Below the pieces are notes generated by a model. That model worked only from the letters and a program-made list of their open reading frames with translations. It made no database searches and was not told the DNA's origin. A stretch of 35,277 nt of DNA from Bdellovibrionales bacterium (GTDB taxonomy: Bacteria > Bdellovibrionota > Bdellovibrionia > Bdellovibrionales > UBA1609), in the NCBI GenBank assembly GCA_050246815.1, contig JBFWVI010000034.1:1-35277 (forward strand). Direction: 5' to 3'. This document shows positions 1 to 26,049 of the stretch, piece after piece. How positions within the stretch are numbered: the first letter of the stretch is position 1; every line of letters begins with the position of its first letter. A program made the position numbers and the translations under genes.

Positions 1-1344
1 GAGCGGTTGCTGGGGGTCTCTGAAAAAGCCGCAGATCAAGCCCAGCGACTGATGGTCGCCGACGACAAACGTTTAATTGAAATACCGCCTGAGCTTGAAA
101 GCGCCATGGCTGAATTCCAAAAGTACGATTCTTCTTTGCGCCGTGCCGCGATCGAATCAGAGCACATCATCGATGCAGGCCTGCTGTCTTTGCTTAGCGC
201 AGGTCATATGTTGGTCGTTGGCGGACCCGGCAACGGCAAATCCTACATCGTACAAAAAATGCTCGAAAATATTCTGTTTACAAAAGATGATCCGGGCCTG
301 TCTGGCGCTGCGCCTCTGGTTTTAAGGCCCCACCGCGCGCATACAGAGCACATGACATCCTTGTTTAAGCTGCAGCTGACAAACAGCACGACGTTTTCGC
401 AATTGTTCGGGAATATTAACAACCGTCGCCTATTCCAAGAAGATGGTGACCACGAGCGCCGTTTGGGACAGGGCATTTTGACCCATGCCTTTGGTTTCTT
501 GGACGAATTTTTTGATGCGGAAGCCCGCCTGCTTCGCGCTCAATTGAACCTCTTGAACGAGCGCGAATTCTCTGAAGCCGGCATCACTCATTACGCGCAA
601 ACTCGAACTGTTTTTGCGACTTCCAACTATTATTTACCCGAAGTGTACTTGAATGCCGCACGCAAGCAGGTCAAGCTGGAAGCTGTTTTAGATCGCTTTC
701 GATACATTGTCTTCGCGGCCAAAGACTTCGCCAACACCGGTGATGTTGGCGGCGACAATACGTATCCAGACAACTACATGGCGCTTTTTGATATCGCGCT
801 TAATAGCAACAAGTACGCGATTTCACCGCTGCACGTCCAAAGCTTACGACTGTTGCAGCAAGTGGCCAGCCAAGTGGTGGTCCCTTCGACATTACTTGGC
901 TTTTGGAAGCGCGTTTCGAGTCGCGTGGACAGCCGTCTGGCCCTGCAACAAAAATCTGCGGCCGAAGAATATGCTCGTGCGATCAAAGACGGTGAGGATG
1001 CCGAGCCCCCCTATCGCGTGACCAAGTCGATGACCAAGCGAACGAAGGGTGCAGGCGCTGTGGAATTGCGGGCCCTTGTGGCCTTGGACTGGATTCGCCA
1101 AAATGGCCAGCGGCCCTTAGTCGCCAACTTCACCGATGTCTTGCGCCTGCAATATTTTTCAGGCCTGGTGGGTAACAAAAACCACGACTTGGATGTTTTG
1201 ATCGGCAAAGCCACCAACGACAAAGAAGAATTGGCCATGCTCCGCACAGTGAAAACAGAACGCGATACCTTTGTGACTTGCTGGGAAGAAGTTATTGACG
1301 AAGTGTTTACCGAGTTCAGCAAGCTGATGAATTCGATACAATAA
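1..1344 (+). CDS. MoxR/RavA-type AAA+ ATPase (5' partial; frame open from base 1)
   Basis: Walker A GGPGNGKS, Walker B GFLDEFF, LNLLNER, sensor ATSN and AVLDRF, as in RavA/MoxR ATPases. There is no upstream stop in the window. Confidence 0.8.
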   Translation, partial: ERLLGVSEKAADQAQRLMVADDKRLIEIPPELESAMAEFQKYDSSLRRAAIESEHIIDAGLLSLLSAGHMLVVGGPGNGKSYIVQKMLENILFTKDDPGLSGAAPLVLRPHRAHTEHMTSLFKLQLTNSTTFSQLFGNINNRRLFQEDGDHERRLGQGILTHAFGFLDEFFDAEARLLRAQLNLLNEREFSEAGITHYAQTRTVFATSNYYLPEVYLNAARKQVKLEAVLDRFRYIVFAAKDFANTGDVGGDNTYPDNYMALFDIALNSNKYAISPLHVQSLRLLQQVASQVVVPSTLLGFWKRVSSRVDSRLALQQKSAAEEYARAIKDGEDAEPPYRVTKSMTKRTKGAGAVELRALVALDWIRQNGQRPLVANFTDVLRLQYFSGLVGNKNHDLDVLIGKATNDKEELAMLRTVKTERDTFVTCWEEVIDEVFTEFSKLMNSIQ

Positions 1345-10196: not shown

Positions 10197-10212
10197 TGGC
10201 CAAGCCCTTGCA
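10197..10212 (+). promoter_or_regulatory. Sigma54 -24/-12 promoter
   Basis: TGGCCAAGCCCTTGCA (GG-N10-GC with TTGCA) just upstream of the 10228 ORF. Confidence 0.6.
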
Positions 10213-10227
10213 ATTCTAGCTGCTTGG

Positions 10228-11079
10228 GTGTTTATGGCGGGTTTAAAAGAAATAGGTTTGAAACTGGCTTTTTGGTTGTGCCAATTGACGGCAGCTGTTC
10301 CATTTTTTACAATTGCTGAGACCTACACGCTCTTCCAAAACGGGCAGCCTCATCGGCAATACTCTCAAATTCTTTTGCGAATTCAACCTGGTGATCTGGT
10401 GCACTTTTCAAATGGCAAAGAGTTTGCGGTCACGCGCAATTACGTTCTTGAATCCGGTCGTTCAGACAAGGGCAGCAATGCTATTTTGGGAGTCCAAGGC
10501 GGGCACATCTTGCGACTACCCAAACACTGCGCAACGATTTGGGAATGCCGTCGTTCGCAGGAATCCCTGCAGCGCTACTTAGACGGCCACCGCCTCTTAG
10601 CATGGGCTAAAGTCCCCACCCCCGAGATTTATTTGGCAGAAAGCTATTTGCCTGAATATTTGCTGCAGGAGGAAGTCGAGATCCTGAGTCTTCTAAGCCA
10701 CCGGCTCAGTGCCGCAGATGAAGGCCTTCGACCGCTTGAAAAATTACTGATCGAGGCGTTGCGGAAATTCTTCCTAAAAACAGCCCCGTTCGTTAGCATC
10801 GGCGACTTTTATGCGGATCAGGTGGCTCTGACCTCAAAAGGGGTCATCTTACTGGATTGGCACGACGGCCACCAGCTTTACAGCCCGTCTTCGGGAGTCC
10901 CCGGCCTCACCGTCATCCGCAATTTGCGCCAGCATCAAAACTTAAAAACTCTTCTCGATTCTTTGGAATCCACCATTTTCACTGAACGCCAGTCCTTGCG
11001 TTGCCAACAATGGCTGGAGCGAACACAATATTTAGAAAAGATGTTTACCTATGCTCATGAACCCGTCACACCTAACTGA
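10228..11079 (+). CDS. Hypothetical protein with a degenerate protein-kinase-like (RIO/Kdo/APH-like) fold, possibly exported
   Basis: Hydrophobic N-terminus. VPTPEIY...YLLQEEV (hinge-like) and IGDFYADQV...VILLDW resemble the HGDLxxxN...hhDW motifs. The start may be ATG 10234. Confidence 0.5.
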   Translation: MFMAGLKEIGLKLAFWLCQLTAAVPFFTIAETYTLFQNGQPHRQYSQILLRIQPGDLVHFSNGKEFAVTRNYVLESGRSDKGSNAILGVQGGHILRLPKHCATIWECRRSQESLQRYLDGHRLLAWAKVPTPEIYLAESYLPEYLLQEEVEILSLLSHRLSAADEGLRPLEKLLIEALRKFFLKTAPFVSIGDFYADQVALTSKGVILLDWHDGHQLYSPSSGVPGLTVIRNLRQHQNLKTLLDSLESTIFTERQSLRCQQWLERTQYLEKMFTYAHEPVTPN

Positions 11080-11206
11080 GGACTGTCTTTGGGTTTTTCT
11101 GAATGCGTCCGTATGCTTTTGAGCAAAAAAGGGCGATACGACCAAATGTTCGACAAGGACTCCTTCGCAGAATCAAAGTGCAGAAGAAATGGTTCACTTT
11201 TGGGAT

Positions 11207-11222
11207 TGGCAAGGGGGTTGCA
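11207..11222 (+). promoter_or_regulatory. Sigma54 -24/-12 promoter
   Basis: TGGCAAGGGGGTTGCA in a 410-bp intergenic region. Confidence 0.55.
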
Positions 11223-11489
11223 AAACACTCTTCCGGTTTTTGACATTAAGCTGCAAGGCTTTTTTCATTCATAGGCAAAATGCCCTGGAATCGAAGAGTT
11301 ACGCAGACGAGGTCAATGATCCTTGTCCTTGTGTTGTGGGCAGGCTCACGGAAAGCGCGAAAAAATTTCGAGCAAACCGTGAAAAGATGTGATGGTTCAA
11401 TAAGTTGACGCGAAGCGATTGATTCTATTAAGGTCTGTCATTCGCGTCTGTAAGATTAAAAGGGTTAACGTAAACAGGAGAGGACAGAC

Positions 11490-12113
11490 ATGTTCAAACA
11501 AGTAATCGCAATCGTTGCAGCGGTCGGTATGATCGCGACCGTAAATGCAAATGCACAAGGCGCAGCCAAAGGCGCAGCTAAAGCCGCTGAAGAAGTTGGC
11601 GCAGCTGTTCGTGGCGGCAAAACCATTAAGCCTGGCCAAGCTGGAGCAAAAGTGAACAGCACGGGCGCAGTGAAGAGCACAAGCAGCGAAGCTGCCGGCG
11701 TTGTAACTCAAAAACAAGAAGCTGCAGCGGCGACTGGCGTTGATAGCCACGTGACCTGCCCGGCTGACTCTGTTTTGAGCAAACTTCCTCGCTCCGCACA
11801 AGCGACTGTTCAAGAATTCCAAGGCATGGGTGGCGGCGGCAGTGCTTGCATGGTGAACCTTAAGTCTGTCGAAGCAGCGAATGCAAAAGTTGCTGGCGAC
11901 GCTGAAGCCATTCAAGTTGCGAAACGTTTGGGCGTGACTGACATTGCCAGGGCAACCAAAGTTCAATTAGTTAAAATCGCTCAAGGTTGGACCAAAGGCA
12001 TCATGAATGCACTGGGAATCAAAGAGATCGCTGAAGGCGTTCGTCGCACTAAAGCTATCTGTGCAAACAACTGCGACCTCCTGTCGAAACAGTTGTGCGG
12101 CGCTATTCAGTAA
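11490..12113 (+). CDS. Secreted Ala/Lys/Gly-rich hypothetical protein with 5 Cys
   Basis: Strong RBS AGGAGAGG, signal peptide ending ANA, GCT/GCA/AAA-rich codons and its own terminator. Confidence 0.85.
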   Translation: MFKQVIAIVAAVGMIATVNANAQGAAKGAAKAAEEVGAAVRGGKTIKPGQAGAKVNSTGAVKSTSSEAAGVVTQKQEAAAATGVDSHVTCPADSVLSKLPRSAQATVQEFQGMGGGGSACMVNLKSVEAANAKVAGDAEAIQVAKRLGVTDIARATKVQLVKIAQGWTKGIMNALGIKEIAEGVRRTKAICANNCDLLSKQLCGAIQ

Positions 12114-12144
12114 TTCGTTACTGACCTAAATGTTTGCTCTTCTG

Positions 12145-12178
12145 AAGCGGAGATCTTGTGGTCTCCGCTTTTGTTTTT
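12145..12178 (+). terminator. Rho-independent terminator
   Basis: Stem AAGCGGAGATC-ttgt-GGTCTCCGCTT followed by TTGTTTTT. Confidence 0.85.
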
Positions 12179-12278
12179 CAGGGCCCAGTCGGCCTGTGCT
12201 GTTTAAAGCCCTGACAGGTCCTAGCCAAAATTGCGCCCTCTGCTGTTGCGATTCTTATAAGGCCTCATTGCTCCTGCG

Positions 12279-12342
12279 TAACCAATTGATTTTAAAAGAA
12301 TTTTTGTCGAATCAGAGCCTCTGCCATGGTGCCAAGATTGCA
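12279..12342 (+). promoter_or_regulatory. IHF site plus sigma54 promoter of the three-gene operon
   Basis: 12279-12291 reads AATCAATTGGTTA on the minus strand (perfect WATCAANNNNTTR). 12327-12342 is TGGTGCCAAGATTGCA (GG-N10-GC). Confidence 0.65.
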
Positions 12343-12353
12343 TATGAGCTTAG

Positions 12354-15300
12354 GTGATGAGATCGATCTACTCCACCCTTATTCTAAAGTCTTTTAAACG
12401 TAGCCTGCGTCGTACTGGCATTTTGGGGTTATCAGCCATAATGGCCGTTCAGCCTGTGTTCGCTCAGCCTGGCCCCAGCACTAATTCGAAGCTGACTCCG
12501 GCCCAACAGGCCTTCTTAAAAGCCCTGGCCGCTCAAGTTAAATCGACAAAACAAAGCGCCGCGACTCAGACCAAAGTGGTCGTTGAAAATGCCGCCGCGA
12601 ACTACTGTGTGACCGGCAAAGAGGGCACTGCGGTCCGCGAAGATTTATTGGCTTTGGAGCCTAAGCTCAAAGCCGAAACGCAGTCCTGGGCCGAGGCAGC
12701 CAAAAACCATAGTCAAACACTTCGTAACTTGCGACATGATCTGCTGACCAATGACGAAGCATATAGCCGTCTGGAGGCGGAGCTCAGCAAGTCAGAAGAT
12801 CTGGTTGTTTCTTTGCGCAATCGTTTGTTCGCCACGCTTGGGCAACTACCCCGGATCTATCGTGATCGTGGCCAATTGATGATTGAAAGCTACTTCAGAA
12901 TTCTGGGCTACCACATGGAACTGAAGCTTTTCGCTGAGCCCACCCGCTGGGGCTTGAATGAGCTACGTGAAAAGTACGCCTTAGAAATGTCGCCAGCTTC
13001 AGTGGAGCGCTTTTTCAACGATGGTGACTTTTCGATCGACGGAATTGAAATCCAACCGCATATTCGTGAAAACAAGATGCTTTATCGTTTGTCATTGAAC
13101 GAGCAAAATGTGTTTTTATCTTTTGTGCGAGCTGCGGCCCGCTCGCCGCATTTAAAAAAGCCCAGCCAAGCTTACGTGGAAACTGTACGCTGTGTTTTAG
13201 GCCGCGCCACTTTGGGAAAGTATGCCTTGAACAAAGCTTTGGTCGACCAAGGCGAATTGGGACAACCACTGAATCCCGAACAAAATTTTTGTTTGGGAGT
13301 GAAGGCCAAAGAATTTATGCAAGTGGTCCAACATGAGGTGGACATCACTCGCGAAATGTCTTTGCGCACGATTGTCGCCAAAGAATTACCGTCCGCCGTC
13401 CACGACTTTTCACGACACACGCAAGACTTTCTAACGCAGACTCAACTAGGTTCCGCAATCACCACTTTAATGGGCTTCCCGGAACTTCTGCCGTATGTTT
13501 TGCAGGACACGGTCGAGCAGCGCACAATTCCTGCAGCTGTTGCCGCCTTTATGGCGATTCATCGCGATATCGACGCCAGCATTGAAAAACAGTATAAAAA
13601 AACTCCCGCTCTTGAAGATCTGCGTTTTATTTGGAAAAGTCCCGCCATCCAAGCCAAGCTGGGTGGAGTCTTGAACAACTGCGCCGTCACGCTTAAAGAA
13701 CCCTCTGGCAAGGCCCTGACAGTAGATGATGTTTGGGAAAAAATCCTGCGCTCAGACGATTATTACTTCACCGTCATGCTGACAACTAATCTTAAGCAGA
13801 TTCCGGGCCGTTGGCTTGAGATGAAAAAATCCGAGTTGGCGTTGAGCCTGCGCAACTATATCCTGGCCACAAAAACTGCCGGATCATTGCGTGCAATCAC
13901 CTCTTTGTTTGGCGCCTATGCAGATCAGCAGTCCGCCGATGCCGATGCAATTGCGATGGCCATTCATGAAGACTTCTCAAATTTGCTAATGAAAGAGTAC
14001 ACCGCCTTGTGGAACAAAAATCCAGCTTTGCAAGCCTGGCTAGATGGTATCGTGGAAAAAGTTGAGGCTGGAAAAGCCGGAACAAAAAACTTTAAAAAGC
14101 CGCTTTTGGCCTACACTGAGGCGTTGATTCAAAAGGCACAAGAAGTCGCCAAAACTATGGATCCAAACACCTCGGTGGCGGATCTTCCCTACAAAGAAGA
14201 CTATGTCCTGATGGCATTGTCCGAGCCGATCTTGAAGCTGACACCTGACAATCGTCGCCGCTACGACCTGCTACTTGAACAATCCGCCCAAACCGCCCGT
14301 CAGGCAGTTTGGAAAAAGCTTTGGCCCATCATGCAACAAGAGGCGGCACAGAAAAACATGACCTGCGATGACCCGGGTCTGGGCCGACGACTGGGCGCGA
14401 TGGCCGCCAGCGGTCTTCGCCATATGACTTTCGGTCTTGTCGACATGAAAGACGTGGTCGATCAAAATGTTGTCAATCAAGATTGCCGGACAATGAAAAT
14501 GATTGCAGGTGTGACCGGAGTTGAGAGGGCAGAAGCTCCCACAGATCTATCACATGCCATCATTTATCTTACAAATGCTCAATTTGACGATGAGTTCATC
14601 AAAAACTTTGAACTGGCTTACCGAAAGCAAGTGGCGGCCGAGATCATGGATGAATTCCGCATCTTGGATCTGCCCACCTACACCCCGGGAAAATTTGATA
14701 AGTACATTCTGCGCAAAACAGAGCAGCGCTTCTGGCAAAAAGTCGTTCAGATCAAAAACGCCGAACTTTTACAGGCAGACGTCGTCGCCGCCTTGCGCTT
14801 AAGCATTGCCGACCTCGAAAGCCGACTAAAAACCGTGATCAACGCGCAAAGCGAAAAGGACTTGGAATTCTTTATCAAACGCACCAAATCCATCAACGTT
14901 CTGCTGGGCGAAAACACCCAACACAAAATGCTCGCCCGCTTGGGGGCTCAACAAAGCGGCGCCAAAGTAGCCATCGCGTTGTCTGCACCCGACCTTGGCT
15001 TCGTCTTTCCTTCTTTGTTGAAATATCATAAAGAGATACAAGATCGCTCAATTTTAGACGAAGAGTTTGATCATGAAATGTGGAGTGAGTTCGTTAATGC
15101 CAACACCGTCTTGGTGATGGCGGTGATCGGCGGCTGGGTGATCAAACATGCCGCGGGCTTGTTGCCTCGCTTCACCCTTGCACCAGCGATTGCCTCAAGA
15201 ATCGACCATGTTGGTAGCCGTATGTCCATGGTAATCGGCGCTCACGCCGATTACACTTTTATGATCTTAGCCGCGCATTTGGTAAATGCTCATTTGCGTG

Positions 15301-15959
15301 AAACTGAGTACAGCTCTACTCAAGAAAATATTGAAAGCCTTAATCGTGCTGAAGGCGCCGAAAACCGAGATGGTTCGATTTTCGAAGACTTCCCGCTAAG
15401 TCCATTCAGCTTGGTCGACAAAGAGAGCTTCTTAAAACAACAAGAGCTGTTCCGCTCTGAAGCGGCTAATCAGAATTCGCAATTCTGGCAAACTGCTGCT
15501 TTCTTGACCCTGCCCTTTTTGATCGGCCGGGGCACCAATGTCGTTGGCCATGTTGCAAACAAATTCCGCATCTCCATTGAGAAATCATTTGAAGGTATCG
15601 GATATTTCGGACGTCAGCGTCACGAAATGTGGATGCGGTTTGGAATTCGCAGCAAAATGCACTTGCTTCGACGTGACTTCAAAATTTTGGGTAATCCTTC
15701 GTCGGTGGAAGTCAGCTTGTTACGCTCGCATGCGGATCGCGCGAAAGTCGCAGCCACAACTGAACGTCAAAGAGAAAAAATCGAAGAAGCTTACCAGCGC
15801 ATCGTGAATCGATTTGGTAAAGATGTTCATCGCTACATGAATATGCCGCAACTGCAGCAGGCTTACGCCAATGCATTGTACGGAAAGGGTGGATCTGTTC
15901 AAAACCTAGTGAATCTGCAAAAAGAAGCCACCCGTTTGCGAGAGGCAGGTTTATTATGA
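12354..15959 (+). CDS. Large exported helical hypothetical protein (1201 aa) with C-proximal hydrophobic helices
   Basis: Long ORF, signal peptide ending VFA-Q, three hydrophobic segments near residues 910-1060, and ATGA overlap with the next gene. Confidence 0.85.
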   Translation: MMRSIYSTLILKSFKRSLRRTGILGLSAIMAVQPVFAQPGPSTNSKLTPAQQAFLKALAAQVKSTKQSAATQTKVVVENAAANYCVTGKEGTAVREDLLALEPKLKAETQSWAEAAKNHSQTLRNLRHDLLTNDEAYSRLEAELSKSEDLVVSLRNRLFATLGQLPRIYRDRGQLMIESYFRILGYHMELKLFAEPTRWGLNELREKYALEMSPASVERFFNDGDFSIDGIEIQPHIRENKMLYRLSLNEQNVFLSFVRAAARSPHLKKPSQAYVETVRCVLGRATLGKYALNKALVDQGELGQPLNPEQNFCLGVKAKEFMQVVQHEVDITREMSLRTIVAKELPSAVHDFSRHTQDFLTQTQLGSAITTLMGFPELLPYVLQDTVEQRTIPAAVAAFMAIHRDIDASIEKQYKKTPALEDLRFIWKSPAIQAKLGGVLNNCAVTLKEPSGKALTVDDVWEKILRSDDYYFTVMLTTNLKQIPGRWLEMKKSELALSLRNYILATKTAGSLRAITSLFGAYADQQSADADAIAMAIHEDFSNLLMKEYTALWNKNPALQAWLDGIVEKVEAGKAGTKNFKKPLLAYTEALIQKAQEVAKTMDPNTSVADLPYKEDYVLMALSEPILKLTPDNRRRYDLLLEQSAQTARQAVWKKLWPIMQQEAAQKNMTCDDPGLGRRLGAMAASGLRHMTFGLVDMKDVVDQNVVNQDCRTMKMIAGVTGVERAEAPTDLSHAIIYLTNAQFDDEFIKNFELAYRKQVAAEIMDEFRILDLPTYTPGKFDKYILRKTEQRFWQKVVQIKNAELLQADVVAALRLSIADLESRLKTVINAQSEKDLEFFIKRTKSINVLLGENTQHKMLARLGAQQSGAKVAIALSAPDLGFVFPSLLKYHKEIQDRSILDEEFDHEMWSEFVNANTVLVMAVIGGWVIKHAAGLLPRFTLAPAIASRIDHVGSRMSMVIGAHADYTFMILAAHLVNAHLRETEYSSTQENIESLNRAEGAENRDGSIFEDFPLSPFSLVDKESFLKQQELFRSEAANQNSQFWQTAAFLTLPFLIGRGTNVVGHVANKFRISIEKSFEGIGYFGRQRHEMWMRFGIRSKMHLLRRDFKILGNPSSVEVSLLRSHADRAKVAATTERQREKIEEAYQRIVNRFGKDVHRYMNMPQLQQAYANALYGKGGSVQNLVNLQKEATRLREAGLL

Positions 15960-17485
15960 TGCCTCGTCGTTGGCTCTACCTTTTCATGGCAACGGTCATC
16001 GCCACCACCAGCACACAAACTTTTGCTGAACCGCGCATACCGGCCGTCCCCGCCACAGCGACGCCAGCCTCTGCAGCTTCGGCGCCAGCCTCTGCAGCCT
16101 CGGCGGTGCCGCCACTGGTGATCAAAATTGATGCGAAAGCCTCTGTATTGGAAAAAATCGATCAATTCGTCAACGCTTTGCAAGACAGCAAGTACACCTA
16201 TGCTCTCAATGCGGAAATGCTGAACAAGATATTGGCGCGCAACAATGCTTCTCTTTTGCCCACCACCATCGAAGATCGCGCAGAATTGGCCAACCATGGC
16301 CCCGTTGAGGCCGAGGCCCAGTTTGAGTGGTCTGAAGAGCGCGCCCGCGTGTACAAAGTGGCGCATGACATTGTGACCGAACTGTTCGCCCAAGAAGCGA
16401 TCGAGATCAACGACAGCCTGTTGTCGATCTTGCATCGCTATTTGTTTGACGACCAAGCCCGCCTTCCGCTGACTATCTTGATGGAGCAAGTGATGGGCTA
16501 TCGTTTCAGCCCGGCGCAACTTCAGCACTTGAAGAAGGAAGCCTCGTGGCAGCGTCACTACACACAGGGTTCAATAGCTGGCATTTTGTTGGCAGCCGTA
16601 GGAGCCTTTTGGGGCGGGCGCAAGATTTTTTCAGGTAAAACTTGGATCGCGCTGAGAAGCGGTTTAACCCGTGCGGCCAAACGATCTGCCGCTCCTGCAG
16701 CCACAAAAGTGGATGAAACTGTCGCACATGCTCAGGCTCCATCAGTGGACGAACTATTGGCCATGCTTGATCGCATCGACGCCAATATGGGCTTGGGAAC
16801 TGCGGCCGCTAAAAATATGCCCAAACCAACCGCAAGCCAGAACGTGGCGAGACTTGGCAAAGTGCGTTTGTTCAGTCAATTCCCCGACATCTTTAGCCCC
16901 GCTGGATTTAAGGGAATGTTGCTGTTGATGGGTTTTTCAGCGGCTACTGGTGGTGGCTACGCGGGCGCCCATGAATTGATTAAAATTCTCTCCGCCGAAG
17001 ATCGCGACAATGGCGTCATCGACTTTGCTGTATTAAGCGACCAATATTACGATCGCCTGGCCGTGCAGCGCTTAATCTGCCTAAGCCATGATATGAAAAC
17101 TCAGGCCTTGGCGCTCAAAACACCAGAAAATTTACTGCCCATTCTGCAGCAGACCAATATGCTTTATTCTGAATTTGAATTGCTGAAGCGTATAAATCCG
17201 AGCTTGGTGGATCTGCTTCCCATGCCGCCTGAGGTCAGCCACAATCCGGAAACTGGTGAGGTTTCATTTGAACGTATGGCGCGGGGTAAACCCGTGACTG
17301 AAACCTTTCCTTGCAACAAATTGAAAGGGCGCCCCAAAAGCACCTTGCATGTCAGCGTGAACCAAGTCTTGAGGGACGTCTTAGAGAGCACGGATCACAT
17401 TACGGGGCTACAGAAAGCCGTGGCTGAAGAGGCCGAGAAAAAGGCGGCGGCGGCGAAAACCCTCGCCTCGCCGAAGAAGCCATGA
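15956..17485 (+). CDS. Exported hypothetical protein (509 aa) with two Gly-rich hydrophobic helices
   Basis: Signal peptide ending TFA-E, Pro/Ala/Ser linker, SIAGILLAAVGAFWGG and GMLLLMGFSAATGGGYAG. ATGA overlaps at both ends. Confidence 0.85.
   Translation: MMPRRWLYLFMATVIATTSTQTFAEPRIPAVPATATPASAASAPASAASAVPPLVIKIDAKASVLEKIDQFVNALQDSKYTYALNAEMLNKILARNNASLLPTTIEDRAELANHGPVEAEAQFEWSEERARVYKVAHDIVTELFAQEAIEINDSLLSILHRYLFDDQARLPLTILMEQVMGYRFSPAQLQHLKKEASWQRHYTQGSIAGILLAAVGAFWGGRKIFSGKTWIALRSGLTRAAKRSAAPAATKVDETVAHAQAPSVDELLAMLDRIDANMGLGTAAAKNMPKPTASQNVARLGKVRLFSQFPDIFSPAGFKGMLLLMGFSAATGGGYAGAHELIKILSAEDRDNGVIDFAVLSDQYYDRLAVQRLICLSHDMKTQALALKTPENLLPILQQTNMLYSEFELLKRINPSLVDLLPMPPEVSHNPETGEVSFERMARGKPVTETFPCNKLKGRPKSTLHVSVNQVLRDVLESTDHITGLQKAVAEEAEKKAAAAKTLASPKKP
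16062..16103 (+). repeat. 21-bp tandem duplication encoding (PASAASA)x2
   Basis: CGCCAGCCTCTGCAGCTTCGG / CGCCAGCCTCTGCAGCCTCGG, one mismatch. Confidence 0.85.
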
Positions 17486-19083
17486 CCCCACGTCGCCTTG
17501 TTTCATTCTGCTTAAGCTTTTTGTTGATACTGCCGCCAGTGACAGCCTCGGCTGCGGGGCCGACTTTGGGGCAGTTGTCATTTCAAAAGGCGTTTTTATT
17601 GGATCTTAAAGATTTGGTCGCAGCCTCGTATGACCTCAACTTGGTCCGCATTAAGTTTTTGGGCGAATGCTTAGCCCGCATGTCCGACCAGGATTTCAGT
17701 GCGGTGAAAATCAAAGAGGGAAACCACCGCCCTTGGCTTGACTGCAACGATGGTGTGGCGCAAATGCGCGAAAACACACGTATCAAATATCCGCGCGTAC
17801 GACGCTCGCTACTACTGTCTCAGCTGACAGAGGCTGGCAATCTGTACAGTCTGCTGGTCAATCTGCACAACAACATGCAATTGAAAGCCCTTAAGAAGCC
17901 CGAGCATGTTCTAAAAATTCGCATGGGTGGCATGGGCTGGGGTTTAGGTATTGAAAACCCTCTGGTCAGTTTTTTGAGCAGTGACTTGCTGCCCGCCCCG
18001 GCTTGGACTGAGGAAGAGCTTTCGGGGGTGGCTCGAAGTGCAGAAGAAGGCGCCGACAAATTTAATGTGGATAACTTGAACAAACTTTTGCATGAATCCT
18101 GCGCGCAAATCGCTGCAAAAATAAATGCGAATCCCTTTAAGCTTGATTACACCTTCTGCGGTCAAATGCGCTTGGTTTACTCCAAAGAGCAACACGGCTT
18201 AAGCCTCACTTACGATGGCTCGCTTGAAGATATTCGACAATTGACTGCGCAGGTGGAGCGCGCCAAGTCGTTTTTACCTGGCCAACTCCGCGGGCACCAC
18301 AACCGTTGGGAACAAGAGTACTTGGCGACGGTGCAGCTGAACCCCTATGTGGGCCTGGTCACTTCAGCCACCCCAAGCCGCCAAGACTTTATCGTGGCCC
18401 TTCGGATTATGGCGGGGCGAGCCCAACAAACGGTTGAGGAATTCACAAAAGTGCGAAAAGAGAAAAAACTGGATGACCCACATCTGGCGGATCCACAGGC
18501 TCTTTTAAAACTGATGCAGCACTTGCCCTTGGCGCAGAAACTGGTCGACAGCCCTGGAGTGGAACTTAAAAAAGCTTTGCACCTAAGACCGATGACCAAC
18601 TTACAAGAGATTTTTGACGAGCTGAGCAGCGAACACAACTTTGAAGAATTGAAGCGGGTCGGAAAAATCATCGCCGTTGGCGTGGCCGTCAATATGGCCT
18701 GCATGATCCCCTTTGCCCGCATCGGTAAATCGGCGGGCAGTTTCGCATTGAAACTCGCAAAACTTGAAAAAGTGTCCGACCTGCTGAAACTTAAAAAATG
18801 GGGTGAGATTTCATCTGCTGTCTTTACCCCAGTTTGTTTTTCAATCACAGGTATCGCGGTCAATATGGGCATGCTCTATGAAGCGCAGTATGAATATGCC
18901 GAAATTTACGACCAGGTTTTTGGCAGCATTTCCGATGAAACTTTGATGCGTCAAGTGAGTGAACTCAGCGACAAAGAACGCGAGGTCTTTTGGTCAGCCG
19001 CCACCGTCTTGATGGGAACAGGGGTGGTGAAGTTTGGTGTTGAACGACTGAAGAAAATGATCCTGGGCGCAAGGGGTCTTTAG
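17482..19083 (+). CDS. Exported hypothetical protein (533 aa) with three C-terminal hydrophobic helices
   Basis: Signal peptide ending ASA-A, IIAVGVAVNMACMIPF, AVFTPVCFSITGIAVNMGML and VFWSAATVLMGTGVV. Confidence 0.85.
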   Translation: MTPRRLVSFCLSFLLILPPVTASAAGPTLGQLSFQKAFLLDLKDLVAASYDLNLVRIKFLGECLARMSDQDFSAVKIKEGNHRPWLDCNDGVAQMRENTRIKYPRVRRSLLLSQLTEAGNLYSLLVNLHNNMQLKALKKPEHVLKIRMGGMGWGLGIENPLVSFLSSDLLPAPAWTEEELSGVARSAEEGADKFNVDNLNKLLHESCAQIAAKINANPFKLDYTFCGQMRLVYSKEQHGLSLTYDGSLEDIRQLTAQVERAKSFLPGQLRGHHNRWEQEYLATVQLNPYVGLVTSATPSRQDFIVALRIMAGRAQQTVEEFTKVRKEKKLDDPHLADPQALLKLMQHLPLAQKLVDSPGVELKKALHLRPMTNLQEIFDELSSEHNFEELKRVGKIIAVGVAVNMACMIPFARIGKSAGSFALKLAKLEKVSDLLKLKKWGEISSAVFTPVCFSITGIAVNMGMLYEAQYEYAEIYDQVFGSISDETLMRQVSELSDKEREVFWSAATVLMGTGVVKFGVERLKKMILGARGL

Positions 19084-19193
19084 ATTAAAAAGCCCAACTC
19101 GTATTCTGCGCTTTGCCCACACCATTTTTGAAGGTGCCGTTTTTTGCGTCCAGGTGCCTGAGAAATCGTCGAAAATGTCCTTGACCACCACGC

Positions 19194-19247
19194 TAACCCC
19201 CTGAAACCAGGTTAAAATTCGTCCTCCTGCTGAGAACGACCTTTGCA
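19194..19247 (+). promoter_or_regulatory. Possible degenerate IHF site and sigma54 promoter of the Clp-like gene
   Basis: IHF-like TTTCAGGGGGTTA on the minus strand (19194-19206). GAGAACGACCTTTGCA (19232-19247) has AG instead of the invariant GG. Confidence 0.3.
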
Positions 19248-19271
19248 ATCCTTCAGCTTGAAGGAGTTTTT

Positions 19272-21659
19272 ATGTCTAAAAACCGCCGTTTACTTTCGAC
19301 ACTGATGGTTTTGAGCCTGATTTTAGGCAACAGTCCGCCAGCCTTGGCGGCCGGTGTGCCTGAAGCTTTGAGGCGCGGTTGGACCTATCTTACCACCTTA
19401 GGCCGCAGAAGTGCCCCCCAAACAGAGAAGGCTGGGCAAGCAACAGCGACTACCAATTTGCCCCGTCAATCGATGCGCAAAATCTTGCAACATGTGGATG
19501 AATTAGAACAAGCGACCTCGGGGCTTTTTAAAAGCATTTATAGCCGCGTGGCTTCAGGCCATTACGTCCCCACCTTGGGGCGTGGGCAAAAAATCGACCA
19601 AGCGATGATTCACTTAAATAACCCCTCCATCGAGATGATTGCCATTGAAGGAAGCGAGGGCGTGGGCAAGACCCAAATCCTGATCGGCATACAAGAGCGC
19701 ATCCAGACAGGCCAAGTTCCTACAGCCCTGCAAAATGGCCGTGTGGTGCAATTGAACTCCAGCAACGTGATCCTGTCAGACGTTAAACAGGTTGAAAGCC
19801 AACTTGAAGTTTTGGCGAGCCAGTCAAAATTTGATGGTCCGATTATTCTTTCATTCTCTGAGATCTCTTATTTTTTAACCGAAACAGCAAGCAAGGCCCG
19901 CACCTTTGATATGGTTGTTGATGCAGCTGTTCGCAAGTTGGGTCGCGAACGCGTGCGCATCGTGGTGGAGGGCACCGACAATGAAATCTTAAGCCTTTCG
20001 AAAATTAGCAGTGCGGGCAAACGAATCGCCCGTGTCAAATTACAATCTCTGACCTCCTCAGATCGCCTTGCTTTAGCAAAAGACATCGCCCGCAGTATTA
20101 AGGCCGACGGCGCCAGCGGCAAAGCGGGTTTAGATATCACGGATGCAACACTGGAACAGGCCCTGCGTCTGGACGAATTGTATTTAGGTCATATCGGCTC
20201 ACCCAAATCGTTGGTCAATCTTTTGCTCGGTGCGAAGAGTCTTCGCGAAGTTTTGACTCATGCCACCGAATCACCCCTTTCTCTTGAATTGCGAGAAATT
20301 AAAAAAGAACTGACCCATGAGCTTGAGCGGGCAAAAGGGTTGGCCGGAACATATGCACAGCAGCGCCAGAAAGAAATTCCTGAAGCGATAAAAGGCATTG
20401 AGCTTAAAATTCAAAAATTAGACAAGCGCTTCAATGCATTAAAGGCTGCAATCAAAGAAACAAAAGAGCTACGAGCTAAATTAGGCGAATTCAAATTGAA
20501 TGGCAAAGCCACCGCAGAAGAGTTGACACGTCTTGAGGCACGCATAAAGGAATTAGACAAAGAGCTTAATCAAATCACCCCGGATGAATTGGCTATGTGG
20601 ATCCAGCAAGAGACCAACTTGCCGATTGATGAAATTCTGAAGAATGAACTGACCATGGCCGAAATTGTAAAAGAGTTTGACCAGAATGTTTTTGGTCAGC
20701 ACCTTGCCGTACGAGCGGCTTTAGATGCGGCAGAACGAGTGACTGCGGCTTATCGCACCAGCGATGCCCCCTCCAGTATTTTGCTCTTAGGTGGCCCGGG
20801 CACCGGTAAAACTGAAATTGCAAAAATTTTGGGCAAATTGATGGGACACTTGGAACGCTTCGATGGCTCGGCCTTTATGCAGGCCCACCAATCCGCCACT
20901 TTGCTGGGCGCACCCCCCGGGTACGTGGGCTACGACGCCGCCTCTCCTGGTTTAATTATTTCGGCTGTTCAAAAATTCAAAAGGATGACGCTGCTCTTGG
21001 ATGAAGTTAACTTCTTCCATAAAGACTTTTTAAAACTTCTATATCAACTTCTGAGTGATGGACGATTGACGGGCGGGACCGGTGTAGCCGGCAACTTCAA
21101 AGACACCATCGTCATAATGACGATGAATCCGACTGTTGAGATTCCAAAAGGCGCAACGCGGCAGCAGCTAGAAGATATCGTGATGGCTTCCGGAGATGGT
21201 TTTACAGGACCGATGTTGAATCGGATCACCGAAATCGTTGCCACTGAAAATCTAGATTACTCCGTTTTTGCAAAAATTTTGGGTAAAGAAATCGGACGCC
21301 TCAATGCCTCCATGGCCAAAGATTTGCGACACGTGAGATTAAGCCCCAGTGCCGAAGCTGCGCTGTTAAAGCCTTTCACCGAGGAAGGCAGTAACATTAC
21401 CGCCCGTGATATCAATCGCATCGTTCAGAAAATGGTCACCGATCCCGTCAACCGCCTGCGTAATCAGGGATTCTGGACAACCGCAGATGGTTTGACGCAA
21501 GAATTACGCTTTGCAGATGGCGATATGTTGGAACTGGGGCACACTGACGGCCTAGGATTTTTTTGGCGAGTGGCTCAACCCGGCGAACCTCCAGGCGTGC
21601 CTAGTTTGCGCCCATCGACTGGTGCTGCAACCCCACCCGCGCCGCCCCAAGCACGCTAA
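19272..21659 (+). CDS. ClpB-like double AAA+ (Hsp100) ATPase with an N-terminal signal peptide and degenerate NBD1
   Basis: RBS AAGGAG and signal MSKNRRLLSTLMVLSLILGNSPPALA. NBD1: PTLGR, GSEGVGKT. Coiled-coil middle domain. NBD2: VFGQ, GGPGTGKTE, GAPPGYVGYD, LLLDEV, DGRLT, IMTMN, LNRI. Confidence 0.88.
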   Translation: MSKNRRLLSTLMVLSLILGNSPPALAAGVPEALRRGWTYLTTLGRRSAPQTEKAGQATATTNLPRQSMRKILQHVDELEQATSGLFKSIYSRVASGHYVPTLGRGQKIDQAMIHLNNPSIEMIAIEGSEGVGKTQILIGIQERIQTGQVPTALQNGRVVQLNSSNVILSDVKQVESQLEVLASQSKFDGPIILSFSEISYFLTETASKARTFDMVVDAAVRKLGRERVRIVVEGTDNEILSLSKISSAGKRIARVKLQSLTSSDRLALAKDIARSIKADGASGKAGLDITDATLEQALRLDELYLGHIGSPKSLVNLLLGAKSLREVLTHATESPLSLELREIKKELTHELERAKGLAGTYAQQRQKEIPEAIKGIELKIQKLDKRFNALKAAIKETKELRAKLGEFKLNGKATAEELTRLEARIKELDKELNQITPDELAMWIQQETNLPIDEILKNELTMAEIVKEFDQNVFGQHLAVRAALDAAERVTAAYRTSDAPSSILLLGGPGTGKTEIAKILGKLMGHLERFDGSAFMQAHQSATLLGAPPGYVGYDAASPGLIISAVQKFKRMTLLLDEVNFFHKDFLKLLYQLLSDGRLTGGTGVAGNFKDTIVIMTMNPTVEIPKGATRQQLEDIVMASGDGFTGPMLNRITEIVATENLDYSVFAKILGKEIGRLNASMAKDLRHVRLSPSAEAALLKPFTEEGSNITARDINRIVQKMVTDPVNRLRNQGFWTTADGLTQELRFADGDMLELGHTDGLGFFWRVAQPGEPPGVPSLRPSTGAATPPAPPQAR

Positions 21660-23475: not shown

Positions 23476-23589
23476 ACCTTTGGGCCGTTTTTCGCCTACC
23501 TCTGATAACTCGAATCTATTTAGCCTTTGGTCCAGGACGTGTGGGCGATTGACATTGCGCAGTCAGGCTTGATCGTTTGTAATATTGAT

Positions 23590-26049
23590 GTGCCAAATGT
23601 CATTGCCATCGTTGATGACCCCAAAATGCGCAGTCAAATCGAATCTTATTTCAAAGAGATCGATGCGGAAGGCATTCGTCTGCGCTTTTTCACCACCGGC
23701 TACGAATTCGAACAAAAATACTTCGCCCATAAACGAGCCGGCAAAGTTCACCCCCTTAACCAACTGCCGGGCCTTGAGGACTTTAGCTACGAGCAAATGG
23801 AAGCAAGCCTCTTGCTGCCGCTCAGCGAGAAGTCGCCACTGCCCCATCATATTTTGCGCTTGAAGTGCAATGCCAAGACTCTCAAAGTCGACAGCCTGGA
23901 ACCGGTCGTGGATTCCAACATGGCCGTTTTCAATCGGTTTCCCGAAGACTTGCTGAAAGAAAACAACCCTTTTGCGCATTGGGTGCAGACCGAGTGGAAC
24001 GATCACTGGCAGAAATTCCTAAAAAAAGCGGCAACGGCCAGAACACAGACCCTTATGCCGATGAAGGCCACCGAAAAAGAGCTGGTTTGGCTTAAAATTG
24101 CCTGTGAAAAAAGCGGCGCGGATCATCTGATCTTCACCTTTGAGGATGTCACCAACACCTACCGTGAAGGGATTCAAAATGAACTCAAGCGCCGTGCCGC
24201 TCACCAAGAAGAAAGTGAAGAACTGCAGCTGTTAAGCGAAATCGACATGGTGATTTTTAAGATCGATTGCATCTCGGGCAAAGTGCCCAAGTGGATGGAT
24301 CAAACCTGGAAGCAGTTGCGTGAAGGCGGTTACTTTCCGGGTGAAAAAACACCTCGTTTTATTTTGTTGAAATACGAAGACGATGGCATCAGCAAGCTTG
24401 ATGTGCTTCATAACCGTTTGGATGATCTGATTTATCTACCCCTTGACCGGCTGATCTTTCTGCAAAAGATGGAAATCATTCTTTCTCTACCTAAAAAAAT
24501 CACGCCTTCTTATCTTTTTTCTCAAGAGTTAGGCATGGACATCGAAATTTCAAAGCTCAGCAAACTTGAAAAAATCTCGGATCTGGGTTTGGCAATCCGC
24601 AACCCCGTGCGTTTAACAGAAGGATTGCTTGCGCACTTTTACGTCACATTTCCGGGCGATGACCACCCCACTGATCTGTGGGGCAAGGTTATTCATTCGG
24701 ACCCCCACCCCGAACGCCAACACGAATTTTTAGTCTATTTTTCATTTTTCGGTATTCGTAAAAATGACAGCATGTCGCTGAAACGATACCTTGCAAAAGG
24801 TGCGCGCTTTCACACTTTTATCAACAGCGAGCGCGAAGATTTTTTATTTAACCCGGACGATCTGTTTGCCAGTGACGATGACAAACGCATGCAACAAATT
24901 GCAGTTTTAGACTTGGACGATACTCACGCCGCGCAGATCAAAACCAATCTTCCGAAGGACGTAGACCAAACTCGTGTCATCGTTGAATCCAGCTATTCGG
25001 CCTTCGTCAATCGCTACATGTCTGCCGGCAACACGCAGTTCGCAAAGCCCCCAGATGGCGCAACCGAAGCCGACTTGTTCGCGCCCACGGTCACCTTGAC
25101 CATCAAAAGTGAATCTCTTGAAATGGTGGCACTGCAAACGCCCCCAACCGAAGAGCAAACTTATTTTGGCCATAAAGGGGTAGAGGCCTTTTCAACTCCG
25201 ACGGGCTGGATGAAACCCCTGGCTACCGTCAACGGCAACAAAGAGCTGATTGCAGAACTGGTGAGTCTGGCACTGTCGGGCCACACCGTGAACCGCACTC
25301 TGGTTGGCTCCAACAGCAGCAACGAAGGCCGCATTTTCAATTTGGTCCTCAGCGCGACCGCAGACCCGACGATCATCAAGGTGGACTTGAATCTTCCCAC
25401 CAAAGAGGACCTGCAGCCCAAAACAACCAACGAAAAAATTTCGAGTTTAGATTTGATGGTGGTGGATTTGGCTCTGGTGCCAGGTGGCAACATCAGCGGC
25501 TTTATCGAAGCCGTGAATGAGCAAGCGGCCAAGGCCGGACTGATGAAACACCGAAAGCGCCTTAAGTTCATTTTAACTTGCGTGACTGAAAAGCAGCTTA
25601 AACACCGCGACTGGGCCCACCCGGATTTGATCGGCGTGATTGTGAAGCCCGCCGAAATGCGACACTTGAGTTTTTTAGTCGCGAACGCACTTGGAACCAA
25701 ACACAGCGTCTACCGCTTAAATAACCTGGGATGGATGCCCGCGCTGCTGCCGGTCCATGTGGCCAAAGATGTGCGCCTTGAAATGCTTTCAGAATTCGGC
25801 GCCGCCATTCGGCACAGCCGCCCCATCGCGCCCGGTGCGATCTTGTATTTGCGTGGCGGCATTTTTGACAATGCCCCCAACCGCTGTTTGGCCGCGCGCT
25901 TTTACCACTGCGAGGAACACCCAAAAGAAAAGGGCCAATACCTGTGCACCATGATTTACTTTGGCATCAATGACGGATTCATGAAATACGCCCGCCGCTG
26001 GTTTCGCGAAACCTACGCCCAGTCCAAGCAGGCAGAAGGCAGCGGGTAG
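23590..26049 (+). CDS. Tandem-duplicated signalling protein: two copies of (REC-like domain split by a PAS-like insert + degenerate PilZ-like domain)
   Basis: Internal repeats KISDLG...HPERQHEFLVYFSFFGI and MLSEFG...HPKEKGQYLCTMIYFGI. REC-like IAIVDD / DLMVVD / IVKP. PAS-end motif FEDVT. Start GTG 23590 is uncertain (the ORF is open from 23527). Confidence 0.65.
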   Translation: MPNVIAIVDDPKMRSQIESYFKEIDAEGIRLRFFTTGYEFEQKYFAHKRAGKVHPLNQLPGLEDFSYEQMEASLLLPLSEKSPLPHHILRLKCNAKTLKVDSLEPVVDSNMAVFNRFPEDLLKENNPFAHWVQTEWNDHWQKFLKKAATARTQTLMPMKATEKELVWLKIACEKSGADHLIFTFEDVTNTYREGIQNELKRRAAHQEESEELQLLSEIDMVIFKIDCISGKVPKWMDQTWKQLREGGYFPGEKTPRFILLKYEDDGISKLDVLHNRLDDLIYLPLDRLIFLQKMEIILSLPKKITPSYLFSQELGMDIEISKLSKLEKISDLGLAIRNPVRLTEGLLAHFYVTFPGDDHPTDLWGKVIHSDPHPERQHEFLVYFSFFGIRKNDSMSLKRYLAKGARFHTFINSEREDFLFNPDDLFASDDDKRMQQIAVLDLDDTHAAQIKTNLPKDVDQTRVIVESSYSAFVNRYMSAGNTQFAKPPDGATEADLFAPTVTLTIKSESLEMVALQTPPTEEQTYFGHKGVEAFSTPTGWMKPLATVNGNKELIAELVSLALSGHTVNRTLVGSNSSNEGRIFNLVLSATADPTIIKVDLNLPTKEDLQPKTTNEKISSLDLMVVDLALVPGGNISGFIEAVNEQAAKAGLMKHRKRLKFILTCVTEKQLKHRDWAHPDLIGVIVKPAEMRHLSFLVANALGTKHSVYRLNNLGWMPALLPVHVAKDVRLEMLSEFGAAIRHSRPIAPGAILYLRGGIFDNAPNRCLAARFYHCEEHPKEKGQYLCTMIYFGINDGFMKYARRWFRETYAQSKQAEGSG

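Follow-up and report, generated by a model that had tools for sequence, protein, structure and literature searches.

The window analysed here comprises positions 1–35,277 (forward strand) of contig JBFWVI010000034.1 (assembly GCA_050246815.1) of a Bdellovibrionales bacterium whose 3.4-Mb genome (G000) is 99.1% complete. Six open reading frames in one orientation on the + strand are bounded by hinT on one side and a convergent ROK gene on the other, as stated in a preliminary description that took them for a single export island; the ETF-QO and pdxH genes flank this interval just outside. The conserved unit is smaller and is largely confirmed as the five-gene module g2–g6 (11490–21659), with g1 being a separate insertion. 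It comprises g2 (11490–12113; 207 amino acids), a soluble exported protein; g3 (12354–15959; 1200–1201 amino acids), g4 (15956–17485; 509 amino acids) and g5 (17482–19083; 533 amino acids), which have signal peptides and hydrophobic segments and are joined by overlaps of 4 nt, bearing out their earlier description as a coupled trio; and g6 (19272–21659; 795 amino acids), a ClpB-like Hsp100 with a cleavable-type signal peptide. The GC content of the region is that of the remaining window. The best explanation of the findings below is that g2–g6 constitute a single functional unit that a Bdellovibrionales lineage exports.

Signal peptides were scored with an in-house heuristic script rather than SignalP. 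The script was positive for g2–g6 and negative for g1 and for 9/9 cytoplasmic proteins of the window, giving the five signal peptides previously reported. By this heuristic, g2–g6 are all predicted to carry Sec-type signal peptides, and these are conserved in the homologues, a check that the preliminary description had itself proposed.

Conservation of linkage, the other check it had proposed, was found as well. The g3 profile matched 14 of the 384 genomes of the order, all of them in the window's family, and in nine of these 14 (G000, G004, G008, G012, G084, G117, G118, G120 and G121) g3, g4, g5 and the Clp gene are on one contig; their order and orientation take no fewer than four forms, and g5 and Clp are often divergent. 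The four genes are spread over two contigs in G119, where the break falls inside g4, and both module halves are present at separate places in G115 and G116; g5 occurs in 12 of the 14. A small exported gene lies 5′ of g3 wherever the contig extends that far, recognised in some cases by the g2 profile and in others by position, size and signal peptide only.

A second module type contains a g2-like gene, g5, Clp and one unrelated exported protein of 1200–1450 amino acids, gX, which was matched in 26 of the 109 genomes of the family. None of the 14 g3 genomes also has gX (0.016 by chance, kin not being independent). Both module types are often found beside pdxH, and the modules of G084 and G042 sit between ETF-QO and ROK/pdxH as in this window. 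This shared chromosomal slot points to an old, fast-diverging locus over a recent island. A related cluster of Clp, a 593-amino-acid protein and a gX-like protein is present in G002, of the same genus. As judged from gene content, what stays constant is g5 and Clp together with a small g2-like protein and one large partner, and the idea of the trio as an obligate unit has to be given up: g3 and g4 are replaced by gX elsewhere, and g5 travels further than the motor. With 139 representatives at 50% identity, g5 is the widest module part, present in 39/109 genomes of the family and 69/401 of the phylum, and by homology is a member of a phylum-wide unnamed family; the records of 20 homologues looked up read Bdellovibrionales bacterium, Bdellovibrio bacteriovorus, Halobacteriovoraceae bacterium or simply bacterium. 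Among 52 g5 loci examined, a selection of matches taken strongest first in which the contig stops short at some of the solo loci, an adjacent exported Clp was found at 20 (19/34 inside the family and 1/18 outside).

Several loci met in this survey differ from the two types. More diverged related modules with a g2-like gene, an exported Clp, a protein of 570–590 amino acids and a gX-like protein occur at L128:2055-10755, L129:475-7067 and L131:810-3473, of which those in L128 and L131 adjoin ETF-QO, as in this window. In three loci (L050:4383-6170, L052:6155-7570 and L053:6575-8491) g4 is followed by a member of a further family of exported orphans, which this window lacks. L071 was no longer counted among the Clp-linked loci, the large neighbour there (L071:10834-16134) being an exported-looking protein of 1766 amino acids with an M48 peptidase and an ABC1-type kinase, located between a g2-like gene and a g5 homologue.

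The sequence of g6 matches the ClpB model TIGR03346 with E 3e-55 and 187.8 bits, far under the cut-off of 1232.1, and also the ClpA and TssH models, far below their respective cut-offs. An AlphaFold model (predicted local distance difference test, pLDDT, 80.8) contains a first nucleotide-binding domain (NBD1), a coiled-coil middle domain and a second nucleotide-binding domain (NBD2), and its top Foldseek matches were ClpC, Hsp104 and ClpB; the earlier assignment as a ClpB-like ATPase with a signal peptide holds. Residues 1–80 consist of the signal peptide, an amphipathic helix bearing Trp and a low-confidence linker in place of the N-domain, and a Pfam search returned no Clp_N match in g6. Overlooked earlier was the degeneration of the first ATPase ring: NBD1 retains Walker A, Walker B is lost (it reads SFSE) and pore loop 1 is replaced. 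NBD2 is intact: both Walker motifs (A and B), the substrate-gripping pore loop GYVG, sensor 1 and the Arg finger are all present. At other loci the host genome has genes for a canonical ClpB and ClpA.

The heuristic found a signal peptide in 19/20 linked Clp homologues versus 1/19 canonical ClpA/ClpB. Ala26 at the g6 cleavage site (AxA-type) is at least 90% conserved, and the hydrophobic region of the Clp signal peptides has a median length of 13 versus 14 for the soluble exported proteins of the genome. Among 16 full-length linked homologues, the NBD1 Walker B is degenerate in ten; five show the reverse pattern, with NBD1 intact and NBD2 lacking the Walker A lysine (the GYxG-like loop being kept in 4/5), and one has both Walker sets. 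At least one ring combines the Walker A Lys with the Walker B Asp-Glu in 15/16, the exception (L060) having Asp-Asp. Because the surviving ring differs between lineages and 15/16 yet keep one complete, ATP use is apparently under selection; such reciprocal ring loss among proteins sharing 13–28% identity would be hard to explain without selection for ATP hydrolysis, and the conservation of catalytic motifs thereby supports ATP use by the exported ATPase as first proposed. The exported Clps group together in a FastTree tree with support of 0.94, from which four truncated sequences were left out; the branches are very long and the grouping may therefore be due to long-branch attraction. Complex prediction with residues 290–775 of g6 and 28–530 of g5 gave a score of 0.00, which is evidence neither way.

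Other AAA+ proteins of the host genome have export-like N-termini. A second two-ring Clp-like ATPase of 909 amino acids with a signal-peptide-like N-terminus (G000 C43:19969-22698; L096:9970-12699) is encoded directly upstream of dnaJ- and dnaK-like genes, with NBD1 intact and the NBD2 pore loop absent in the alignment. A protein of 1116 amino acids (G000 C20:20931-24281; L097:8932-12282) combines a signal-peptide-like N-terminus with AAA and M41 peptidase domains and may be an exported FtsH-like protease. Large AAA/MoxR-like proteins, some with export-like N-termini, are found at G000 C35:1-7606, C73:4-4974 and C143:44-2572. Exported ATPases therefore seem to recur in this lineage. Elsewhere, a module of two exported Clp-like ATPases, a VWA protein and trypsin (L133:4479-13849 and L134:3360-12953) adjoins a gene resembling TLC ATP/ADP transporters (PF03219, E 1.6e-9 in L133), which might provide the exported ATPases of that lineage with ATP. 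A dedicated supply of this kind was considered and rejected, the TLC family being found in 1/109 genomes of the family and not in the host genome, in a search whose positive control was silent.

Of the three putative membrane partners, g5 has a helical exported domain, three conserved hydrophobic segments towards the C-terminus (around residues 403, 456 and 511) and six near-invariant Cys; loop 1 is net positive in 33/33 sequences, loop 2 in 0/39 (median −4), while 97% of 39 have a positive C-tail. An exported domain of about 880 amino acids with six conserved Cys precedes the hydrophobic segments of g3 (around residues 928, 970 and 1054), and its basic C-tail of 145 amino acids is positive in 12/12 homologues. 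The hydrophobic segments of g4, one clear and one weaker, are central (around residues 212 and 325), and flank a basic loop of 94 amino acids, so that the C-proximal hydrophobic helices attributed to the whole trio apply to g3 and g5 and not to g4. A conserved N-out topology, with charges alternating according to the positive-inside rule, is predicted for g3, g4 and g5. The small protein g2 has an Ala/Gly-rich N-terminal part and, besides its own putative promoter, a terminator-like hairpin of 12 pairs (12144–12181, + strand); its codon bias is at the 96th percentile of 3045 gene proxies, and it is probably abundant.

Conserved Cys occur in even numbers (four in g2, six in g3, two in g4, where the pair C375/C453 is invariant, and six in g5), which is consistent with predicted disulfides. 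C407 and C452 of g5, invariant in 66/66 proteins, flank the predicted inside loop. If a C407–C452 disulfide forms, the hairpin must cross an oxidising compartment before insertion, and the position of these residues would be easier to explain by export first and insertion later.

Searches of Pfam and NCBIfam gave no significant matches for g1–g5, and word-index protein searches with g5, g3 and g1 returned only the query itself. No mutual homology of g3, g4 and g5 was detectable, the hhalign probability not exceeding 0.9%, nor was a shared origin of g3, g4, g5 and gX supported. Fold searches of the PDB and BFVD with the g5 model (pLDDT 86.5) yielded nothing at E≤0.001, and its best Z was 4.9 among 48,161 chains, which is no demonstration of a new fold; these searches with g5 also served for the comparison with Plasmodium EXP2 and with the folds of ClyA/Hbl-type toxins and type III translocators. 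Nothing above the lead threshold was found in the ESM Atlas for g3 or g4, and none of g3, g4 and g5 matched solved chains by sequence at a significant E-value. Over 74 positions g4 weakly resembled a glucosyltransferase domain of clostridial origin (E 0.023), which was put down to chance.

Sigma54-type −24/−12 motifs precede the transcription units as previously described, all on the + strand: strict matches before g1 (10197–10212), g2 (11207–11222) and g3–g4–g5 (12327–12342), and a degenerate site before g6 (19232–19247) with its −12 half intact and the GG missing. Only one further strict site occurs on the + strand of the window. Strict motifs were found upstream of 10/18 g2 or g2-like genes (0/18 on the reverse strand), before 7/12 g3 homologues (loose 12/12) and before 3/9 g6 homologues (loose 7/9), with reverse-strand controls of 0 and shuffle means below 0.4; g5 homologues had a motif in 7/16 cases. 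The host genome contains rpoN. Genome-wide, the motif precedes 55/804 signal-peptide-positive versus 39/1888 other gene proxies (odds ratio 3.5; reverse-strand control counts 14 and 40). It is enriched before secreted genes generally and therefore marks a wider secretome, so that of the proposed sigma54-controlled island the conserved motifs stand and the island-specificity does not; the pattern suggests a sigma54-type secretome regulon in this lineage. For Bdellovibrio, the accessible portion of one promoter study reports that attack-phase promoters (FliA) were mapped and that growth-phase ones could not be (PMC3627812).

The module was compared with known systems. With the ClpB/Hsp104 class I disaggregases (PDB 4ciu, 5zui, 1qvr) g6 shares the NBD1, coiled-coil middle domain and NBD2 fold and the GYVG pore loop, at about 21–24% identity to solved chains, and a ClpP-binding loop was not seen; unlike in these proteins, a signal peptide replaces the N-domain, and the Walker B and pore loop of NBD1 are lost. 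With its sub-cut-off score, no N-domain and one dead NBD, g6 falls outside ClpB (TIGR03346) on the features tested. The secretion system of type VI (T6SS) likewise has a ClpB-like ATPase dedicated to a gene cluster, ClpV/TssH, and g6 matches TIGR03345 below its cut-off (E 8e-45). ClpV, which recycles the T6SS sheath, is cytoplasmic and uses an N-domain, unlike g6. The sheath protein VipB/TssC had no match in the host genome (the control in E. coli was positive), and by this test the module is outside the T6SS. A set of three helical exported proteins that are encoded together and have hairpins of moderate hydrophobicity recalls the tripartite alpha-pore-forming toxins (Hbl/Nhe/ClyA) and the translocators of type III secretion systems; in contrast to these, g3, g4 and g5 show no detectable mutual homology and travel with an ATPase, and neither g3–g5 nor 66 g5 homologues matched ClyA/Hbl-type or type III translocator families in Pfam or NCBIfam. 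Torsins, which are lumenal ATPases of the endoplasmic reticulum resembling ClpB NBD2 and needing membrane partners, share the succession of signal peptide, hydrophobic or amphipathic helix and Clp-type ATPase. They are single-ring and eukaryotic, unlike g6, whose Pfam Torsin match is below cut-off.

By analogy, the best functional counterpart is the exported-protein translocon of Plasmodium (PTEX; HSP101, PTEX150 and EXP2), in which, according to the available part of PMC7355975, a ClpB-type ATPase outside the cytoplasm is likewise accompanied by orphan membrane or adaptor proteins. In the same text HSP101 has two active NBDs and an N-domain, unlike g6, and PTEX is a eukaryotic complex, the bacterial module being known here from its genes. 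The PTEX-like traits seen at the sequence level are an exported Hsp100 (by the heuristic), a catalytic ring and a pore loop.

The reading that we favour, with a probability of roughly 0.4, is that of an exported, membrane-inserting module whose motor threads proteins on prey-derived ATP, as a PTEX-like or a membrane-extraction motor on the prey side. Sigma54 would switch on g2–g6 together with other secreted genes, and the proteins would fold with disulfides in the periplasm and exit, folded, via the type II secretion system (GspD was found in the host genome above cut-off) into the prey-contact compartment. There g5, g3 and g4 would insert their hairpins, from the periplasmic side, into the inner membrane of the prey, and the Clp hexamer, on ATP from the breached prey, would thread polypeptides at the membrane complex, predator enzymes being pushed in or prey proteins pulled out for digestion; g2 would be an abundant soluble subunit or a substrate. 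The pore, the physical complex, the site of action and predation by this uncultured family we infer. A fuller version is rather unlikely: a bacterial counterpart of PTEX, in which the predator exports a whole translocon and motor, builds it in the prey inner membrane and uses prey ATP to move folded effectors in or pull prey proteins out, and in which evolution has produced two membrane scaffolds that can stand in for each other (g3+g4 or gX) and two kinds of motor, the live ring being either NBD2 or NBD1.

A number of points weigh against the prey-side motor. The predatory lifestyle of the family is itself presumed. At 32/52 g5 loci, including 17/18 outside the family, there is no adjacent exported Clp, and g5 would therefore work without a motor in most lineages. 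In a complete genome (locus L132) one exported Clp, placed with g6 by the tree, is unlinked to g5; G041 and G051 have g3 and a g4-like gene and no g5 match; and three genomes of the same genus have neither a g3 nor a g5 match. The first 18 mature residues of the Clps have a mean charge of +0.9 versus −0.3 in the exported set of the genome (p 0.003, kin not being independent), and basic residues so early in a mature protein can impede its export by Sec. The best hydrophobic windows of g5 (1.94) and g3 (1.86) are close to the genome's membrane-protein median of 1.91, and a signal peptide followed by two or three positive-inside helices is the look of an ordinary inner-membrane protein too. These features fit such proteins as well, so that the prey inner membrane is a candidate target of g3, g4 and g5.

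The solo g5 loci also favour a co-regulated arsenal, in which g3, g4 and g5 (or gX) would be separate membrane-damaging effectors and Clp a stand-alone exported unfoldase, the genes being linked so as to be regulated and inherited together. Separate putative promoters in front of g2, g3, g5 and g6, the split loci of G115 and G116 and the unlinked 909-amino-acid Clp-like and 1116-amino-acid AAA+M41 proteins of the same genome agree with this account, which we nevertheless consider rather improbable: the g5–Clp adjacency is kept in both module types and through inversions, and the mutual exclusion of g3 and gX (0/14) is as expected of alternative subunits for one slot. The loss of the N-domain and of one ring and the very long branches would in turn fit a motor narrowing to one client, as would be the case if the exported Clp were a dedicated remodeller of its own partners, converting g5, g3 and g4 from soluble to inserted or dismantling polymers of g2, comparable to ClpV and the T6SS sheath; motor and partners are, moreover, swapped together at one slot between ETF-QO and ROK/pdxH. 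This is quite unlikely in view of solo g5 genes, which need no motor, of the missing VipB/TssC in a 99%-complete genome and of the purely hypothetical polymerisation of g2.

The problem of ATP would be removed altogether if g3, g4 and g5 were the cell's own inner-membrane proteins with large periplasmic domains and Clp stayed on the cytoplasmic side, its signal peptide unused or serving as an anchor, docked on the basic loops and on the tail of g3, and exporting or assembling g2 in the manner of T6SS or type VII secretion ATPases. The topology obeys the positive-inside rule, Clp lacks conserved Cys and is basic at the start of its mature part, and g2 looks abundant and transcribed on its own. 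We hold such an own-envelope export system to be unlikely; against it stand the short hydrophobic region and conserved AxA-type cleavage site of Clp, the invariant C407/C452, which would face the reducing cytoplasmic side, and the several unrelated AAA+ families in these genomes that share such an N-terminus.

The module is real, conserved and, on the features tested, outside ClpB, the T6SS and the known tripartite pore families; it is apparently undescribed, no description having been found in the mostly open-access literature on Bdellovibrio Clp/Hsp100, sigma54, prey-membrane pores and bdelloplast ATP. The novelty lies in the module composition, the machine itself being what we infer. Hsp100-type motors are normally retained within the cell, the place where ATP is available, and in the textbook view exported bacterial proteins have no ATP. 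An exported Hsp100 that keeps a catalytic ring would therefore mean ATP-dependent work outside the predator cytoplasm, against that view. An ATP transport system is reportedly present in B. bacteriovorus. The route of Bdellovibrio-type predators to the prey cytoplasm is still open, and the module bears on this question with five named, testable genes; even under the weakest rival explanation it defines several unnamed membrane-protein families. In the accessible sections of two reviews, the structural basis of the epibiotic feeding junction is called unknown (PMC12428579), and degradation is said to have to occur behind an intact prey cytoplasmic membrane (PMC13689555).

The remaining gene of the original six, g1 (10228–11079, + strand; 281–283 amino acids), is an orphan outside the conserved module. 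The g1 query matched 0/5 cluster-bearing genomes, and a paralogue 28% identical is located on another contig of the same genome, unlinked, at odds with a six-gene unit. In this paralogue (G000 C28:10342-11160; L102:5343-6161) the signal peptide is clearer, and a sigma54-type motif of its own is present. A possible kinase-like character of g1, seen by eye only, was not confirmed. At 23527–26049 the window encodes a protein of 840 amino acids whose sole family match, to PilZ, is weak and below cut-off (E 6e-4), and the first open reading frame of the window (7–1344) is a cut MoxR-type AAA protein.

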